Below, piece by piece: positions 5,121-61,887 of a DNA stretch of 64,000 nucleotides; position 1 is the stretch's first letter; the number at the start of each line of letters is the position of its first letter. The notes below the pieces were generated by a model, which saw only the letters and a program-made list of their open reading frames with translations, had not been told where the DNA came from and did no database searches. Origin of the DNA: Eledone cirrhosa (Eukaryota); NCBI GenBank assembly GCA_964016885.1, contig OZ024758.1:9610001-9674000 (forward strand). Direction: 5' to 3'. The translations under genes were made by a program, and so were the position numbers.

Positions 5121-5306
5121 TATGAGGGTCAGCTGAAAAGTTGATAGGCTGATTATGAAGGATTGATGCTAGAGCTGTGAAATCTTGCATGCAATTATTT
5201 CAACTCTTCTTAATAATTGCATTGTTTCTTTCCAAGGTCTGTGTTGAAAACTAAACCTCATTTGGTCATTCCATGAGAGTATCTTCGTCAGACTATGAAC
5301 TTTTCA
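5121..5306. mobile_element. mariner-type MITE (~200 bp)
   Basis: Left end TAtgagggtcagctgaaaagtt.ataggctga with a complementary, truncated right end. Family also at 41718-41920, 45013-45135, 46374-46578 and 56231-56412. Confidence 0.7.
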
Positions 5307-5880
5307 CTCTATGAACTTTTAACCTCTCCCGTAGTTGCCTCACTAAGAAGAAGGCATCTGTTGTACTTTTCCCAGGCTCAAAACCAAACTGCATCTCATC
5401 TAATTTGACCCTTTCTCTAATTAATTGCGCTAATATTCTCTCTGCCACTTTCATAACCTGATCCATTAGCTTTATGCCCCTATAATTGCTCCTCTCCAGA
5501 ACATCCCCTTTACCTTTGTAGCAATTTATGAGAATACTGCTGCACCAGTTTTTGGGTATGACACCACCATATATAGCCTGATTGATGATGTGTGCAACCA
5601 GTTTAGTGCCTACTTCTCCTGATGCCTTCAGCATCTCAGCAACTATCCCTGACTGTCCAGCGGCCTTACCATTTTTCATTTCCTTAATTGCCTCTTGGAC
5701 CCTATATTCGTCAATCTCAATAGCTGGTCCCTCTGTTGGGTATACTGAGGGTAATTTCTCTCTCTCCCATTTCTTCTCCACATTCATCAGTCTCTCATAA
5801 TGACATTTCCAGGCCTCCTTTTTCTGATCATTCGTGACACTAAGTACACCAGCATCATTCCGGACACATTTATCTCCAAC
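5307..5880 (-). mobile_element. RTE LINE reverse transcriptase fragment (N-terminal RT domains)
   Basis: AIKEMKNGKAAGQSGIVAEML...YKGKGD...SNYRGIKLMD...MQFGFEPGKSTTDAFFLVRQL are non-LTR RT motifs; truncated by a MITE. Confidence 0.92.
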
Positions 5881-7119
5881 AATATCCTGATTTACTCCTT
5901 AGTGCTGGAAGGCTTGCTTGCTTGCAGTCAGATTGCTGGTGTCTCTATAAAATATACTCTATTCTATAGACACAGCCATTGATATAGTTACTCCAAACTG
6001 AAGTAAAAAATATTAAAAATATACTTTATACTATTTTAGTGTAATTGAATAAATAAACCTTGCTTATCTCTGTAAATGTTACGGCTATCCCAATGATATT
6101 CTTTTTGTTATCTCTAATGTCACCTCAACTTTCTTAAGTATGAGAATGGAATCTCAAAGAACAGGTTTTAATCTTTGCAAAGATGTTATTAAAAGAAAGA
6201 GAGAAGAAAGAAAGATTTACTTTTGTGTCAATAATGCAGGTTTTAAGATCCTTATCTTTCAACCTGTTTCCTAAATATTTTCCTCTGGCTATTTAGATGG
6301 ATTTCTTCTCTTATTGGGGAGAATTCCTTAGAAAGAATGTTACATCCCTACAGGGAGGTGACTCATGTTACACTGGACTCAACATCCACTCTGATGTCAT
6401 TCAACAATATATCAAAAAGTTTTCTACAATTTTTTTTGAAGTTTCACTGGTATTTCTTTCTTTACATACTTTTTTCAATCTTTGTCTTTCTAATACTTCT
6501 CACTCTCTCTTTCTCCCTCCTCTCTCTTTTATCTCCTTCCATTCACTTTTTTTCCAGTTGCTACCATAACTTCAATATGTAAGCATGCATGAGGAAAAAG
6601 GGAGTGTGTGTGTGTGTGTGTTTATGTGCAAATGTGCAGGAGTGTACATGTATGTATGTGTGAGCTGGTTTATGCATGCATTTATGCATGCGTATGTGTG
6701 TGTATGGGATTATGTCTATAAACCCAACACAAACAAATGTGAAGTAGTATATGTATTCAAGTTGATGAGATCCTCTACATGCTCACTCAATTTGAACACA
6801 ATACATATCTAATACTTATTTAAAACCTTGCAAGTTTGATAAAACATATCAAATCTCCCCAGAACCATGCCCTACTTCTTAAAAGTGAAAGGACACATTA
6901 AATGATATACACTAAGATATACTGTATCTAAGAAAAAAATATAAATCTACTTATACAAGTGCTCTTACATCAAGTTTGAACAGGTTAGGCTGAACAAGAA
7001 CCCCAACAATGAGGAATATGTAATTGTATATCTGTAGACATTTTATTAGCTTATAAGATATAGATAGATAGAGAGAGAGAGAATAAGAATTGAATCTTTT
7101 TGTGAAACTTTATTTCATA

Positions 7120-7320: not shown

Positions 7321-7934
7321 TTACAATTGTTTCCATATCGATCAGCTCAGGTTTTATCAGGTGATCAGATCCCGACTCTTAATCGACACTTCTTCAAATG
7401 AGAGAGTTTACATGGGTGGTCCCATCCAAAGAGACAGACCCTGTAACAGTATTGCATGCTTCGATCAGCATTGCCGCTAGTAACCACAAGTTACTCACGT
7501 AATAACATATACATATAAATATATATATTAGTAGAAGTACAGATTAAAGTTTAAGCAAAGAATTTCTGCCTTCACCCTATTAAGTAGAAGTCCCTGTTGC
7601 AGCATATGTAGAATCTTTATTGGCGTCTTATAATTGCTTCATTATACTGACTCTTTTTCAACATATAAACTCAGATATCTGACGAAATGAGTCGGGCCCA
7701 GCTATTTTGATTGTACCCTGAGCTGATAAATTTTGAAACAATATGCCAATAAATTTTCTACATATGCTACAACACTGATTTTGATTCTATTTACTTTATT
7801 TAAACCCTCTACACTAACACCTGCCTTAACTCTGGAATACAACCCATGAGACGGATCTCGTAACAGTATTGAGTGCTTCAAATGGTGCACCACCTGTAAC
7901 TGTAGTTTCATTCCTAATATATATATATATATAT

Positions 7935-8282
7935 GGAGGCACATGGCTTAGTGGTTAGAGCATTGGCCTTGCAATCGAAAGGTTGTGAGTTCAATTCTCA
8001 GACTGGGTGATGTGTTGTTTCCTTGAGCAAGACACTTTATTTCACATTGCTCCAGTTTACTCAGCTGTAGAAATGAGATGATAGGGACTGGGGTCTCTAT
8101 CATTCCACTGCAAAGTAGTCGTGGAGGTGCCACGGCAAAAAAGCACCCAGCACTCACTGTAAATGAGGTTGGTGTTAGGAAGGGCATCCAGCTGTAGAAA
8201 TCAAGCCAGAATCAGTTCCCGTCCCACCCTTGCAAGCAGGGAAAAAGCGGACATAAAATGGGATGATGATGATGATGATGAT
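7935..8282 (+). mobile_element. tRNA-derived CORE-type SINE with RTE-LINE 3' tail and (GAT)n end
   Basis: A/B boxes and CORE-like body, then aaaagcacccagcactcactgtaaatgaggttggtgttaggaagggcatccagctgtag, shared with the RTE 3'UTR at ~3625-3690. Confidence 0.85.
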
Positions 8283-8969: not shown

Positions 8970-9290
8970 ACTACAAGTCAATCTTTCAGATACAGAGTCT
9001 GATATATTAGATATATTATTTAACGATGATAACAAAGGAAAGTTATTTTACATATATCATTCCTTGTTTTACGGTTGTTTGATATATTGACTGAAACAAG
9101 TGTTTCCGATGAAGACGGTATGATCGAACCCTTATATTAGGTATGATCGAACCCTTATATTAGGTCTGATAGTATACAGTTCTCTAACTGCTATAGATCA
9201 GTCAATATATCGATACAATCAACCCTCCAAATGATTGGAAAGCAATGAAGGAAATATGTAAAATAACTTGCCTTTGTTATCATTGTTAAA

Positions 9291-9430
9291 TAACTGTTTC
9301 TACGTTAGGCACAAGGCCAGCAATTCCCCAGTGTATTACTGGTACTTTATTTTATCGACCCCCGTAAGGATGAAAGGCAAAGTTAACCTCGACGGGATTC
9401 GAACTCAGAATGGCAAGGGCCGTAACTCTA
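9291..9430 (-). mobile_element. SINE family 2, partial
   Basis: Reverse-complement match to the body of 20263-20460. Confidence 0.75.
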
Positions 9431-9574: not shown

Positions 9575-9794
9575 AATATGGTGTCATAAATATAGTTTCC
9601 ATTTATTAACATCATTTATATATATATATACATAGGAAAATGTTTAACCCCGACGGCAGAGCTCAAGCCGTTTTGACGGCTTGAGCTCTGCCGTCGAGGT
9701 TAAACATTTTCCTATTACCCACTCTACTACCCTAAGTATTGAGTACTCTGGTGCGTTATGGTCCATCTGGTTCCTTACCACACTTCCTTCATTT

Positions 9795-9927: not shown

Positions 9928-9976
<49 letters not shown>

Positions 9977-10069
9977 AAGGTTATATTTATCTATCCAGGA
10001 AGCTCCAACTGTTAAGGTTATCTTTTTTCAGAGTATGTCAATATTTATTTATAAAACTAATCTGTATTG

Positions 10070-10135
10070 TATTTTATCTGATGAAAGCGCACCATAATTT
10101 GCCTTGGTGGCCCTTGAAATATGTATAATAAAATA
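10070..10135 (+). ncRNA. Type I hammerhead ribozyme with intact core
   Basis: Stem I TATTTTAT/ATAAAATA; CTGATGA 10078-10084; stem II AAGCGCACCA...TGGTGGCCCTT; GAAA 10116-10119; stem III ATATGTAT (plausibly a CpG-decayed ATACGTAT palindrome); AUA site after 10127. Confidence 0.75.
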
Positions 10136-10247
10136 AATATGGTTTTATAAATATGGTTTTATAAATATAGTTTCCATTTGTTAATATATTGTATATATAT
10201 ATATATCCCACCAAGGCAAATTATGGTGCGCTTTCATCAGATAAAAT

Positions 10248-10280
<33 letters not shown>

Positions 10281-10667
10281 CATAAGGTTTCCCTGCTAGT
10301 ACCAGCTGCATCTCAGCGTACTCAATAGGTGAGGTTATGTAAAAATCCCAGAGTAGAAACATAGTTAATTGCTACAATACAACACACGTAAATGAGTACC
10401 ATAGATCTATAGCTGTACTCGAGTTTATATATTTGCAAGATATAGCGGTATACTAATCTAAGTAGCTATAGTTGATTGCCAGGCTGTATTCCCACGTGTA
10501 GCAATGTTCCACCACATGGCGGTTGAACACATGTGACCTATCTGTTTGGTAAGATCACATTAACATAGAGTAATGCTAATCCTTGATCGATTGCTGGCTG
10601 TGTGTACCAAGCTTCAGACTCCATATGCAGACTAACCTAATGTAATGTAAGATGGTGAGAAGAGAAG

Positions 10668-12941: not shown

Positions 12942-13278
12942 GGAGGCACATGGCTTAGTGGTTAGAGCATTGGCTTTGCAATCAAAAGGTTGTGAGTTCA
13001 ATTCTCAGACCGGGTGATGTGTTGTTTCCTTGAGCAAGACACTTTATTTCACATTGCTCCAGTTCACTCAGCTGTAGAAATGAGATGATAGGGACTGGGG
13101 TCCCTATCATTCCGCTGCAAAGTGGTCGTGGAGGTGCCATGGAAAAAAGCACCCAGCACTCACTGTAAATGAGGTTGGTGTTAGGAAGGGCATCCAGCTG
13201 TAGACATCAAGCCAAAGTAGGTTCCCGTCCCACCTTTGCAAGCAGGGAAAAGTGGACGTAAAATGAAATGATGATGAT
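12942..13278 (+). mobile_element. CORE-type SINE with RTE tail
   Basis: Near-identical to 7935-8282. Confidence 0.85.
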
Positions 13279-35678: not shown

Positions 35679-36574
35679 ATATATATATATATGTTTTTCT
35701 ATTACTTTTCTTTCAATATTCAACCAGAAAAATTGAATGATTTACAAAATTGTCTTTATTGGGGGTTGAAAGGTCAACTAAATATCTTCAGAACTTAACA
35801 TAGCAGCAGCCGCCTCTCAAAGTTTCTTTGCTTCTTTTCCTTTATTTTTCTTTTCTTTATGAGATGTTAAAACAAGTTGAATAAAACATGTAATTAAATT
35901 ATCTTGAAATCATTTGGCTTCATGCAATTTATATAGACTTGAAATGTAGTAGGAAGTATCTAAGAACTTGTTATTGAAATTTAGACAAACGTGGGAAGCC
36001 AAAGAAGACGCAGTGATATGAAACAGTTTTTGCCTGAAGCATGAGACTATTAAACAAAATGCCTTGTGATGTTTGTTTTGGTTCCTTGCCTTCTGAATTC
36101 AAATCATTTTAAGGGAAAAGCCTTTTGTAGCCAGCAGTGGTGGTAGCTCCCTGAACTTCTTCCACCCCGTTCTTGCCCTGGTTACTGTACTTTCCGAACA
36201 CCCACCTCCGCTGCTAATTCGGTCACCTAGGTAGCAGAAGATGTCTACTGTTTCTGCAGAGCCCTCCCAGAAATGGGTAGTTTTTGTTTCCTGTGGCTGT
36301 TTGCTGCTTGCTGTCCCGGTTCAACTGCTACATGTAAAGCCTTCATTCTAGACTTCCTGAGATCCCACTACATCTCTTGTGTACCCATAGTTTGCATTTG
36401 GAGCAGAGGATGGGGTCCCAACCTACACCTTTCCTACATACTAACCAAGGCCATTTCCCTGAGGGGATCTGGGTTCTGTTTTCTCGTCTACTTACGGGAA
36501 CCTAAGTCTTTGTCAGGTTGACTCTGAGACTCCTTCTTTCTATTCCCTGCTTCCATGTTTGGAATATATATAAC

Positions 36575-36806
36575 CCAACGGCTTATTTAAATCTACTCTG
36601 ATTTAAAAATATCCGAAACTAATTTACATAATAGTATAAATAAATTTATAACCCCACTTTCCGGGAGCTTCCAACAGAAATGGTCGCATTCTTTAAGGGT
36701 ATGTCAATATTTATTTATAAAACTGTTCTATATTATATTTTATCTGATGAAAGCACACCACAATTTAACTTGGTGTTTTATAAATATAGTTTCCATTTGT
36801 TAATAT

Positions 36807-36996: not shown

Positions 36997-37280
36997 CACA
37001 TGGCATAGTGGTTAGAGCATTAGGCTTGCAATCGAAAGGTTGTGAGTTCAATTCTCGGACTGGGTGATGTGTTGTTTCCTTGAGCAAGACACTTTATTTC
37101 ATGTTGCTCGAGTTTAATCAGCTGAAAATGAGTACCAGCAATAGCTGGGGGTTTAACCTTGCGATGGACTGGTGTCCTGTCCAGGGGGGGGGGGGGGGTC
37201 TTGTACTCTCAGCCGCTTCACACCATGAAACCGGGATAAGCACCGGCCAAATGAGCCTTCTGGCTTAAGACAGACTTTAG
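36997..37280 (+). mobile_element. CORE-type SINE (tail type 1)
   Basis: Head as in the 7935 family, tail as in 982-1263. Confidence 0.75.
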
Positions 37281-41920: not shown

Positions 41921-42720
41921 CTAGATGTCTAGGAATGGAACTGAAATTGTGTTGATGCTAAGATAGTGAATGTCAGAATGGAATTAGTTTTAAGATCTTT
42001 CAAAAGATTAGTTTGTTTATTAGTATTTCTTTATAAATAGAAAAACACAGAAATAAAAACCTAAACAGTAAGAGCTTTCATAAATACAAAATATTCTGTC
42101 GTTAGACGAGCTTTTAAATTTATATTCTCTTAACCACACTGACATGATTGCACCTATTTTTTTCTTTTTTGCTTCTTTCTAGCTCTTCGTTACTCTTGAT
42201 GGAGTTGTAGGGGTGTCATGTCTTGGGCATTTTAAATTTAGTGGAGCCCATCCCTTTGTATGTCAAAAGACAGCTGATTTCTGCCACATATATATATTTG
42301 GTCTTTCCAATTGCTAATACTATCTATCGGTCACAACTCCAGGTAGAAGGAGCAACATGAAATAAAGTGTCTTGCTCAAGGACATAACACATTGTCCGGT
42401 CCAGGAATCGTACTCACAACCTAGCTATTGTGAATCCAGTTCTCTAACCAATCAGCCACACGCCTTCACTATCTAGTGAAGCCTACATTCTTAACTAAAC
42501 TTTCTGAGATCCCACTACATCTCTTGTGTACATAGTTTGCATTTGGGGCAGAGGATGGAGTTCCAACCTACACCTTTCCTATATACTGACCAAGGCCATT
42601 TGCCTGAAGGGATCTGGGTTCTGTTTTCTCATCTACTTACAAGGACCTTCGTCTTTGTCAGGATGACTGTGAGACACTTTCTTTCTAGTCCCTGCTTCCA
42701 TGTTTTGGAATTTCTTCTTT

Positions 42721-42875
42721 AGTTTCAGCTAACAGTGTAAGATCATCCGCATACCAAAGTTTCCATGGGCATCCGGTCTTAAACTCCTCTGCTATAGCCT
42801 GCAATACTATAATAATCAGGAGATGGTCAAGAACAGAGCCCTGGTGGACACCGATCTGTATGCTAAATTCTTCTC
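42721..42875 (-). mobile_element. RTE RT fragment including the YADD motif
   Basis: Minus strand translates EEFSIQIGVHQGSVLDHLLIIIVLQAIAEEFKTGCPWKLWYADDLTLLAET. Confidence 0.88.
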
Positions 42876-42881
42876 AGCCCA

Positions 42882-42922
<41 letters not shown>

Positions 42923-42932
42923 AACAAGTAGG

Positions 42933-43028
42933 ACCCCGACGGCTGAGCTCAAGCCGTTTCGACAGCTAATTCTGGACTAAATAAAAATTTTTATCCTGGT
43001 ATTTGAATAGCCGAGCTTCTCAGGGGGT
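42933..43028 (-). ncRNA. Type I hammerhead motif of a second family (GUC site), with one core deviation
   Basis: Minus strand reads ACCCC-CTGAGAA-long stem II (GGCTA/TAGCT)-GAAA-CGGCT[TGAGCTC]AGCCG-TC-GGGGT. The core is CUGAGAA rather than CUGANGA. Flanked by (TA)n on both sides. Confidence 0.65.
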
Positions 43029-43077
43029 AATTCCATATATGGTAAAAGTGATTGTCACAAGGATTGGTCAAAAGTTC

Positions 43078-48665: not shown

Positions 48666-49780
48666 ATCTGTTACAAGTCTGTAGATCTCAGCTGTCCATT
48701 TGTTACAAGTCTGTAGATCTGTTACAAGTCTGTAGATCTCAGCTGTCCATTTGTTACAAGTCTGTAGATCTCAGCTGTCCATTTGTTACAAGTCTGTAGA
48801 TCTGTTACAAGTCTGTTGATCTCAGCTGTCCATTTGTTACAAGTCTGTAGATCTCAGCTGTCCATTTGTTACAAGTCTGTAGATCTGTTACAAGTCTGTA
48901 GATCTCAGATGTCCATTTGTTACAAGTCTGTAGATCTGGTTGGTCCATATACATATATCATCATTTAACATCTGCTTTCCCTGCTAGCAAGGGTTGGACA
49001 GGTCTTTTCAGACTTAATCAGTATTGAAGCAGGGCTACTGACCATCCAAACAAGGCAGGGGTCTGCATTTCACTTATATATAGTCCCATGTTCTACCAAG
49101 TGCATTTTATCATGGAACCAGCACTAGAGAGGTTGTCATGTCTTTGACATAGCTGAAGAGTTCTCCAAACAATTTGTTTGCCAAGCTTTCTATGACTGGA
49201 TGCCCTTCACTCTTTACAGCATGTACTGGGTGTGTTTAACTGGTCATTTCCAGCCAGAATTCTCTCACCTCTTTCTGTTCAAATTGGCTGTAACCAGCCA
49301 CTCATACTGTCATTAAGGTTTTGTTCTGAAAGTAAATAGTATTGTAGGCAGTAGTAGTAACATGTAGCTGTCTAACATTGTATAAACAAGATAGATTATT
49401 GTTCAATATGTATAAAAAATTGATAGAATTAATTGTAGCAGATAGTTTAGATATGTTTAGAATGGTTTAATGAGACAGCTGAGAGATCTACAGACTTGTA
49501 ACAAATGGACATCTGAGATCTACAGACTTGTAACAGATCTACAGACTTGTAACAAATGGACAGCTGAGATCTACAGACTTGTAACAAATGGACAGCTGAG
49601 ATCAACAGACTTGTAACAGATCTACAGACTTGTAACAAATGGACAGCTGAGATCTACAGACTTGTAACAGATCTACAGACTTGTAACAAATGGACAGCTG
49701 AGATCTACAGACTTGTAACAGATCTACAGACTGGTAACAAATGGACAGCTGAGATCTACAGACTTGTAACAAATGGACAG
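48666..49780. repeat. Inverted pair of 32/19-bp minisatellite arrays (48666-48937 and 49484-49780)
   Basis: Units gatctcagctgtccatttgttacaagtctgta and gatctgttacaagtctgta. The ORF track shows the same 52-aa peptide from the + and - arms. Confidence 0.95.
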
Positions 49781-59835: not shown

Positions 59836-60418
59836 GGTTATCTTAGACAAAATCCAAAAGTCTGTGAACGTAATGCCGTATGATGCTCATTTTACAGCCA
59901 AATTTACAAAAAGAAGAGAGAATCTTCTCCACAAGTTCACCATAATTATCAGCCTTATAGTTCCTAAGGAAATTTTTCCTTGATGATCATGTATACATCT
60001 CAATGTTGTCCAGTTAATCTTGGAAAAGCTGGTCTTTCATGAAATATCCAAAATGTAGTCTAAACTCCCAGAATCCAAGAATATATATAAGTGGTTGTGG
60101 AGGTGCCACGGCAAAAAAGCACCCAGCACTCACTGTAAATGAGGTTGGTGTTAGGAAGGGCATCCAGCTGTAGAAATCAAGCCAGAATCAGTTCCCGTCC
60201 CACCCTTGCAAGCAGGGAAAAAGCGGACGTAAAATGAAATGAAATGATGATTGTGTGTAACATGTTAGCATGGAAAAATGGACATTAAACAGTGATGATG
60301 ATGATACAGGGTGGTGCTAAAGTCACGCACCAGTAAAATAACATTTTGTCATAATATCTTCATATTTGTGATATAAAAGTTTTTCTTGTGATTAGGGTAG
60401 TGTATGACTTTTGCATTA

Positions 60419-60463
<45 letters not shown>

Positions 60464-60640
60464 GGAGAGGTGGTAGTGCATTATAAGCCTTCGCCCCCTC
60501 ACCAGATGTTCTTTAGTAGATTCAGTTGCCACCACTTTGAGGGCGACTGGCCGAGCAGCTAGTTGGTCAGTCGTCCTCTTTGTCTCTGTCTCTGATTTTT
60601 CGGACTCATGGTTTTTTACATATTCGTTTGTTATATTCGA

Positions 60641-60698
60641 ATACCTGATGATATCACCGGATTCATATGGAACCCGGTCATTGAAATGATCATAGTAT
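60641..60698 (+). ncRNA. Type I hammerhead ribozyme motif
   Basis: Stem I ATAC/GTAT; CTGATGA; stem II ACCGG.TTC/GAA.CCGGT with a weak base (U.U at the first pair); GAAA; palindrome ATGATCAT; AUA site after 60694; AATAAA follows immediately. Confidence 0.7.
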
Positions 60699-60826
60699 AA
60701 TAAACCTTTCAAGGATTTACACCAGTCCAGCCTCCTGTTATTTTATTTTATTTATATATATATATATATATAGATTTAACACTTCACTGCTCACAAGTGT
60801 TTTTTAAGCTTCATATCATGTCTCCC

Positions 60827-60897
60827 TATTTTATCTGATGAGAACGCAAATATCATCCCATGATGATATTTGTTTTTGAAATGCGCATAATAAAATA
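60827..60897 (+). ncRNA. Type I hammerhead ribozyme with intact core
   Basis: Stem I TATTTTAT/ATAAAATA (8 bp); CTGATGA 60835-60841; 16-bp stem II (GU pairs, one C.U mismatch, CCAT loop); GAAA 60878-60881; palindromic stem III ATGCGCAT; AUA cleavage site after 60889. Confidence 0.85.
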
Positions 60898-60927
60898 CAT
60901 GGAACTCTTTTAACCATCTTTTGATCT

Positions 60928-60976
<49 letters not shown>

Positions 60977-61286
60977 ATCAAAAGATGGTTAAAAGAGTTC
61001 CATGTATTTTCTTATGCGCATTTCAATATTATAGATATATATATACCCGCCACCACCCCTACACACCCCACACCCTTCCACCACCTGTTTACCCCCCTTT
61101 TAATTTCAGTATATTTTGATCATGCCTTTATTTTTAAATTTATCTCATTCCTTGTATTTTGATCATGCTTTATTTTTATTTTTATCTTTATCTTTTATTT
61201 TTTCATTCGCACCGTTTCCTTTCGCTATATGTCTCTCCACCACTCCCCTATACACCCTTTGAACTCTGTTCCCACACACTTCTCAC

Positions 61287-61314
61287 CTGAGGAAGGGCTT
61301 ATGCCCGAAACGTC
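61287..61314 (+). ncRNA. Minimal Penelope-type hammerhead core
   Basis: CTGAGGA-A-GGGC[TTAT]GCCC-GAAA-CG-TC, with AATAAA ~40 nt downstream. Stem I pairing is poor. Confidence 0.55.
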
Positions 61315-61887
61315 GCCCCCCACCAACACCCCACTCTCCAGAGCGTGAAATTAATAAACATTCGTTGTACTGCCTCTCTGTTTTGTCCCTGTTCAAATTT
61401 TTCCATTATATATATTTGTTCCCCAGTGTTATTTGCTCACTCAAAAGATTTCACTATTGTTTTGAACATCTGAAATCTAATCAGTTTCTTACCATATAAT
61501 TCTATTTCTAGACATATGGTATACGGCATAAGAAAAATAATGAAATTGAAATCACGACTTATGTAGATTATGTGGAGATTGACAAGCCTGCTTGGATTGC
61601 AGGGATGCGGCAAGGTGAGAAATGATAAAGTAGCAATTTCTTTAATTTCATCAACATAAGGATTATCTGCTCCTTCAAGGTGCAAAATATACATTATTAT
61701 AAAAGAAATCTATTTTTCTATTGTCTTTCTATGTCTGTCTATATCGATCTCTCTACCTATTTATTTCTCTCTCACACACTCTCTCTCACTCTCTCTCTCT
61801 CTCTTTCTTTCTCTCTCACTCTCTCTCTCTCTTTCTCACGCTTTCTCTCTCTCTATATATATATATCAGGAAAAAATTGAACTGTTA

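Follow-up and report, generated by a model that had tools for sequence, protein, structure and literature searches.

A tail-to-tail hammerhead repeat around a (TA)n tract in Eledone cirrhosa DNA: a probable scar of retroelement insertion in an uncommon form

Introduction

A hammerhead motif followed by a (TA)n tract and an inverted copy of its own catalytic half raises the question of whether that copy was kept to restrain the motif or was left behind by the process that inserted it. We analyzed such a locus in a stretch of repeat-rich animal DNA of 64,000 nucleotides from Eledone cirrhosa (assembly GCA_964016885.1, contig OZ024758.1, positions 9,610,001–9,674,000, forward strand), here termed the window and numbered from its first letter. 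An initial annotation had proposed that the copy, once transcribed, would confine cleavage to a short co-transcriptional interval or silence it, thereby protecting a host pre-mRNA, and had named a by-product of insertion by a Penelope-like element (PLE) or of template switching as alternatives. The structure is real in the assembly, and we read it most readily as a PLE insertion scar of an uncommon, tail-to-tail kind.

Structure of the inverted repeat and its junctions

The annotated 56-bp inverted repeat, with one mismatch and centered on (TA)n, was confirmed: its arms (60876–60932 and 60970–61026) are 57 nt long and 98% complementary, the 56-nt limits given initially being one TA base shorter. 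The left arm (+ strand) is the 3′ part of a hammerhead-bearing element, B, and its non-TA part spans 52 nt (60876–60927). The right arm, B′ (− strand), is a 5′-truncated copy of the 3′ end of B in the opposite orientation, so that the two copies share a common 3′ end and face each other tail-to-tail across the central (TA)n tract (60928–60974), which forms the loop of the predicted hairpin and is the putative TA tail of the arm. The sole mismatch opposes T60891 to a G on the right arm's own strand, a single substitution at 61011. Relative to B, the right arm starts 2 nt ahead of GAAA, where the 11-bp hairpin of stem II has its 3′ base. The inversions at 10208–10255 and 9632–9715, described below, also break within about 5 nt of GAAA (few cases, compared post hoc).

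Non-TA flanking inversions were found at 2 of the 37 scored (TA)n tracts in the window (a 38th, at the window end, was left out of scoring), namely the tract at 60928 and one at 10192. Their inversion scores were 99 and 86, and the other scored tracts reached at most 22; among mismatched pairs of flanks used as a control, 2/1225 reached a score of 60. The flanking inversion around (TA)n is thus not a product of chance.

Two direct repeats, both perfect but short and AT-rich, bound the structure on the + strand. TATAGAT (7 bp) encloses the whole unit of B, (TA)n and arm, with its left copy at 60769–60775, and would represent the target-site duplication of B. The 8-bp repeat ATATTATA encloses the (TA)n and the right arm, with its left copy at 60929–60936, and would represent that of the arm. 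Their right copies overlap within 61026–61036 (ATATTATA at 61026–61033, TATAGAT at 61030–61036). GAT follows 9 of 182 TA-run ends, which gives the 7-bp repeat a probability of about 5% by chance; ATATTATA occurs seven times on the + strand of the 64 kb, twice at these junctions. Two nested target-site duplications would explain every junction base without further mutation; an empty site was not observed among the contigs and reads compared.

Hammerhead motif of element B

Descriptor search and fold prediction placed a type I hammerhead motif in B at 60827–60897 (+ strand). Stem I pairs 60827–60834 with 60890–60897 (8 bp), the core CTGATGA lies at 60835–60841 and GAAA at 60878–60881, and stem II (60842–60877) includes 11 perfect base pairs (60847–60857 with 60862–60872). 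Helix III is formed by the palindrome ATGCGCAT (60881–60888), with the predicted cut after 60889. All sequence elements of a type I hammerhead (CUGANGA, GAAA, UH, and helices I and II) were thus present, and the left arm was confirmed to carry, as first annotated, GAAA together with helix III, the predicted cleavage position and the stem I 3′ strand. The description of the motif as intact held for the core letters and less so for the helices: helix III is of the dimer type, palindromic and 1–2 bp long, and stem II closes with a G-U pair in place of G-C. No hammerhead matched Rfam at the gathering score in the whole window, nor at E values up to 10 in 60400–61500; the call accordingly rests on descriptor searches and the alignment of B-type copies. 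Rfam microRNA matches in 60400–61500, all below the gathering score, reflect the hairpin only.

Conservation across the B-type copies in the window includes stem I, with helix III varying in its letters but remaining palindromic or nearly so; the helix III sequences, which differ between families, were TGCGCA, TATATA, TATGTA and TGATCA. In the monomer, helix III was predicted to pair with a probability below 1%, and the full monomer fold of B without the arm had a predicted probability of about 3e-5, 1e-4 at best, whereas the palindromes of two copies were predicted to pair at −10.5 kcal/mol. As a monomer, the B hammerhead is therefore predicted to be nearly inactive. Two other arrangements were considered and rejected: a heterodimer of the A and B hammerheads, in which helix III would pair at −0.8 kcal/mol and the stem I strands are unmatched, and a second + strand hammerhead completed by the arm, for which the sequence offers neither GAAA nor a stem I partner.

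Neighboring elements and repeat families

On the + strand, three distinct stubs with hammerhead motifs follow one another head to tail with TA tracts between them, their cores starting at 60645 (A), 60835 (B) and 61287 (C). Element A (60463–60750, 5′ limit approximate) belongs to a separate high-copy repeat family and ends in (TA)n; its own type I hammerhead motif has the palindrome ATGATCAT and a predicted cut after 60694. The left (TA)n tract (60753–60772) separates A from B (60776–60932), a stub of about 155 nt from a high-copy family that is presumably a PLE pseudo-LTR plus tail. Element C (61045–61415) represents a third high-copy family with a minimal-hammerhead-like core; its stem I does not pair here, and other C copies end in (TA)n. 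This layout of hammerhead, short tail and (TA)n target matches described PLE ends (PMC8557442; PMC4209133). B itself shows several features of a PLE 3′ stub: its type I hammerhead lies close to the 3′ end, with a short tail behind it, and the family is present in many copies, truncated at the 5′ side and targeted to (TA)n. All five B-type copies in the window reach (TA)n a few tens of bases past the cut site, at 43 nt (B) and 50 nt in the two scored with a relaxed descriptor.

Copy number was approached through contigs and reads from 4 of 23 listed sequencing runs. In one of these (X1), the summed contig depth of A, B and C was roughly 1e5–1.7e6, compared with about 50 at 61046, which suggests a B family of the order of 10,000 copies, depth not being a copy number in itself. 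The depth of all three families rises toward each 3′ end, a slope to which stem II divergence contributes. In another run (X4), the ratio of family C (61044–61427) to family B was about 20 times that in X1.

Among the 300 of 550 open frames of at least 45 amino acids that were scanned against Pfam (247 low-complexity frames and 3 of the shortest were left out), there was neither a PLE reading frame (telomerase-like reverse transcriptase and GIY-YIG) nor a host exon, although short or Pfam-less exons would escape such a scan; the stubs themselves are non-coding, and PLE membership and any host intron are consequently presumptive. The PHD match in the window falls in an apparent LINE fragment, and the C2H2 match is one which we take to be LINE-derived too.

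The window holds further repeats of various kinds. The B-type copy at 36744–36800 has an internal deletion that starts near the break of the 10208–10255 arm, within the stem II 3′ strand, and a further hammerhead-like motif with the palindrome ACAATTGT and one core change lies at 7322–7368 (− strand). Arrays of 32-, 51- and 83-bp units at 48666–49780 stand in opposite orientation, with 195-nt arms (98%) about 550 bp apart, and appear fold-back or MITE-like; an inverted repeat of 66 nt (83%) around a 23-bp tandem duplication at 9016–9293 is MITE-like. A tRNA-derived, SINE-like repeat occurs at 7942–8005 (barely above the Rfam tRNA threshold), about 12960–13050 and about 37000–37090, and fragments of LINE-type retrotransposons with weak RVT_1 or PHD-like Pfam matches lie on the − strand at 5296–5898, 36102–36501 and 42688–42873.

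Frequency of the arrangement inside and outside the window

Within the window, an arm was present at 2 of 7 hammerhead-ended tracts and at 0 of 30 others (p = 0.03, post hoc), an enrichment that weakens to p = 0.10 if five more tracts are counted as element-ended. The seven tracts were assigned by hand because the relaxed hammerhead descriptor, which gave 11 matches in the window against 2–4 in five shuffles, missed the copy at 10078.

In the second case (9974–10290), a B-type element and (TA)n are followed by an inverted copy (10208–10255) that covers the 5′ half of the element's hammerhead and is not contiguous with the tract. This copy is identical to its neighbor at 47 of 48 positions, the figure for another copy in the window being 41 of 48. 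Each of the TA tracts flanking this locus is followed by what may be an outer direct repeat. Nearby, the hairpin at 9632–9715 (39/40 paired, 4-nt loop) comprises the 3′ half of another hammerhead family in the canonical head-to-head geometry. That family also has a fuller copy between two TA tracts at 42918–43030 (− strand), in which helix III is long and the core carries a single change. The TA tract at 9617–9630 is faced tail-to-tail by two different hammerhead families, which shows re-targeting of a TA tract in the opposite orientation without fold-back.

Outside the window, metagenome contigs were scanned for core, GAAA and (TA)10, and 89 of an estimated 2200 loci were covered; these contain 97 tracts, of which 76 have sequence on either side. 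Eighteen tracts end a hammerhead fold, and a tail-to-tail arm was present at 0 of the 16 evaluable ones, a soft number because some loci are related and short-read assemblies may break at palindromes. Head-to-head palindromes occurred at 4 of the 18 hammerhead-(TA)n loci; in one of the scanned loci (L059, 328–465) such a palindrome is centered inside stem II of the hammerhead with TA tracts flanking it. Flanking inversions were found at 2 of 60 other outside tracts: L018 is a diverged head-to-head pair, and L026 (98–512) is an inverted repeat of roughly 190 bp around (TA)n(GA)n whose arms have no hammerhead core. In 1 of the 18 loci (L052; 30 of 82 frames scanned), a GIY-YIG frame lies upstream on the same strand, followed by the hammerhead and (TA)n. 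The family-B pattern had no match in the metagenome contigs.

Origin of the right arm

With moderate confidence, we attribute the reversed arm to a second, 5′-truncated copy of the same PLE, reverse-transcribed on the opposite strand into the TA junction of B and without a selected function. Target-primed reverse transcription would first have placed B into a TA tract, producing the 7-bp duplication and a TA tail of 5 nt. In the same event or soon after, nicks staggered by 8 nt in the TA junction of B could have released a top-strand 3′ end, which would have been extended with (TA)n and then by copying uncleaved family RNA from the 3′ end of that RNA. Synthesis would have stalled at stem II after 52 nt, and gap closure would have duplicated 8 bp. 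One purified PLE protein has been shown to nick AT-rich DNA on both strands, to extend both and to accept uncleaved RNA (PMC11167929), and PLEs target (TA)n and make tandem and inverted copies (PMC8557442). The fallback in the initial annotation, a by-product of PLE insertion, is supported as the reading that fits the junctions best. The form that it had named, the inverted pseudo-LTR, does not apply in its canonical version: there the copy lies on the 5′ side, head-to-head with 3′ ends outward, whereas here both 3′ ends face the central (TA)n. Head-to-head is also described as the most frequent form of inverted PLE copies (PMC3846280). Against an opposite-strand insertion stand the uncommon tail-to-tail geometry, found at 0/16 outside loci compared with 4/18 for head-to-head, the shortness and AT-richness of both direct repeats, and the presumptive nature of the driver of B, given that no PLE frame was found in the window (among the frames scanned).

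The main rival to this opposite-strand insertion operates on DNA. A nascent or broken top strand ending in (TA)n could have snapped back, copied 52–56 nt of B DNA, stalled at stem II and re-annealed at the start of the tract, with no RNA template involved. The identity of the arm to B was rejected as proof of copying in cis at this locus, B seeming close to the majority sequence of its family: no majority difference was seen in the arm region among 40 of 113 rows, so the 55/56 identity cannot separate an RNA from a DNA template. (TA)n is self-complementary, the DNA hairpin and stem II as DNA were predicted at −10.1 and −9.1 kcal/mol, respectively, and the arm directly adjoins the tract. Breaks in yeast give rise to short inversions of the fold-back type (PMC11724301), and the inversion at L026 is centered on a microsatellite without a hammerhead. 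The yeast fold-backs are, however, mostly 5–34 bp long (PMC11724301), the arm was absent from all 30 window tracts that lack a recognized hammerhead element, and the 10208 arm leaves out about 80 nt, with no microhomology where it starts. Moreover, the 8-bp duplication would require synthesis to return upstream of the point at which it had left; no switch of this class was seen in the human-chimp data, which concern unique regions, not TA tracts (PMC5453318). Overall, a DNA fold-back is an unlikely source of the arm. More doubtful still, and in our judgment distinctly improbable, is a self-primed RNA hairpin, in which a sense transcript ending in (UA)n would fold back, be extended by reverse transcriptase to stem II and be inserted once as an RNA-DNA hairpin. 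Self-priming on a sense template is predicted to give tail-to-tail repeats (PMC3846280), and the 7-bp repeat does enclose the whole unit. The outer repeat at 9974–10290 might be similar, with 64 of 3828 control pairs, nearly all of low complexity, scoring equally. Such an origin would leave the inner 8-bp repeat as a coincidence, and the hairpin form was seen at no other locus among the read joints, though the comparison skipped these repeats.

Very little credence is due to an assembly artefact at the (TA)n fold-back. It would accord with the fact that no listed record bridges the arm and its flank, in a comparison that skips the repeats at 60733–60783 and 60923–60983. The arm is nevertheless argued to be real because it has its own substitution, the sequence returns to forward after it, and the two direct repeats bound it. 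At the base that differs between the arm and its partner, no T>G change was counted in run X1. The window contains no N and its long arrays are resolved. Contig depth in run X1 was 114–190 over the arm and about 50 at 61046, which suggests a single-copy junction. An artefact is thus unlikely, and opposite-strand insertion remains our preferred reading.

Predicted effect on self-cleavage and wider meaning

Under the preferred reading, a + strand transcript, if made, is predicted to fold into a 56-bp hairpin and so, as a side effect, to block a hammerhead that is weak in any case and depends on dimers. None of the listed runs containing the sequence was an RNA run, which has no bearing on expression. 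Sequestration of the core by the right arm, as proposed initially, was borne out by fold prediction: the probability of the full monomer fold would drop from about 3e-5 to about 7e-24 with the arm, and the predicted fold energy was −113.1 kcal/mol with the arm and −18.9 kcal/mol without it. Stem I was predicted to be lost once the transcript reaches 61005–61010, leaving an interval of about 110 nt before sequestration, less than half of which is (TA)n (42–47 nt). Transcription elongation proceeds at 0.5–4 kb/min, and the interval would last 2–13 s.

That the arm was kept as an antisense lock or timer, limiting cleavage of a host pre-mRNA to an interval set by the (TA)n, is nonetheless highly improbable. 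The predicted sequestration is complete, and two of the seven element-ended tracts in the window carry an arm. A tuned interval could not be upheld, however, with a monomer predicted to be nearly inactive even without the arm and with (TA)n making up the smaller part of the interval. The computed fraction cut within it was 2–16% at 0.8/min and below 0.03% at 0.001/min, with elongation rates taken from general background. Single hammerheads of this type perform poorly in vitro: one minimal motif showed no detectable cleavage (PMC4209133), and the fraction cut after an hour was 6% for an axolotl monomer (PMC7229834). The idea that a host pre-mRNA is protected likewise found no backing: no host exon appeared among the frames scanned (300/550), the arm was missing at all 16 evaluable loci elsewhere, and no arm accompanies hammerhead A, which lies 190 nt upstream in the same orientation. 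The literature covered, which excluded most subscription journals, contained no account of an antisense arm regulating a PLE hammerhead. The regulatory reading of the arm is thus unsupported.

We also regard as very doubtful a broader scenario for this animal lineage, in which PLEs would regularly insert a second time, on the opposite strand, into the TA junctions that they have just made and would thereby produce thousands of tail-to-tail hairpins. Such hairpins would be preferentially retained because they shut off hammerheads in host introns or because they supply 56-bp dsRNA to small-RNA or editing pathways directed at a family of ~10,000 copies. If arms proved to be enriched genome-wide at intact, intronic-sense hammerheads, this would offer a testable route by which animal genes tolerate thousands of self-cleaving motifs. 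At present, the locus is a small clue to PLE integration: the nested short duplications and the stop at stem II fit priming on both strands with uncleaved RNA, as seen in vitro, and the tail-to-tail form is predicted in print and uncommon.

Comparison with known systems

No description of tail-to-tail stubs around (TA)n was found in the literature, coverage again excluding most subscription journals. Hammerhead motifs on opposite strands are known from Schistosoma, where pairs lie 100–700 bp apart (PMC4209133). Among the systems compared, template-switch and fold-back inversions (PMC5453318; PMC11724301) share with the locus a perfect local inverted repeat giving a hairpin; they differ in that here the return precedes the exit, the arm is longer than most yeast fold-backs, and no arm in this window lies away from a hammerhead element. 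Animal non-LTR retrozymes (PMC7229834; bioRxiv 10.64898/2026.07.22.740005) are, like B, short, non-coding and low in GC, carry a type I hammerhead and are proposed to be PLE-derived. They are defined by head-to-tail tandem repeats, whereas B is a solitary dispersed stub; membership was rejected, B forming no tandem array and A, B and C belonging to different families.

The dimer-type type I hammerheads of metazoan PLEs (PMC4209133) resemble the B motif in their intact core, long helix II and short palindromic helix III. B departs from them in having G-U in place of the conserved G10.1-C11.1 pair, an 8-bp stem I composed of A and U only, and no Rfam match. With the architecture of endonuclease-bearing PLEs (PMC8557442; PMC3846280), the locus shares a hammerhead near the 3′ end, a (TA)n target, 5′ truncation, a tail of about 40 nt compared with 30–40 bp, and a near-identical inverted partner. 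Its short direct repeats of 7 and 8 bp compare with 8–10 bp in the PLEs of Adineta vaga (PMC8557442; PMC3846280). Two features set it apart from the described elements (PMC8557442; PMC3846280): no reading frame was found at the locus, and its inverted copy lies on the 3′ side, tail-to-tail around (TA)n, in contrast to the described form on the 5′ side, head-to-head.
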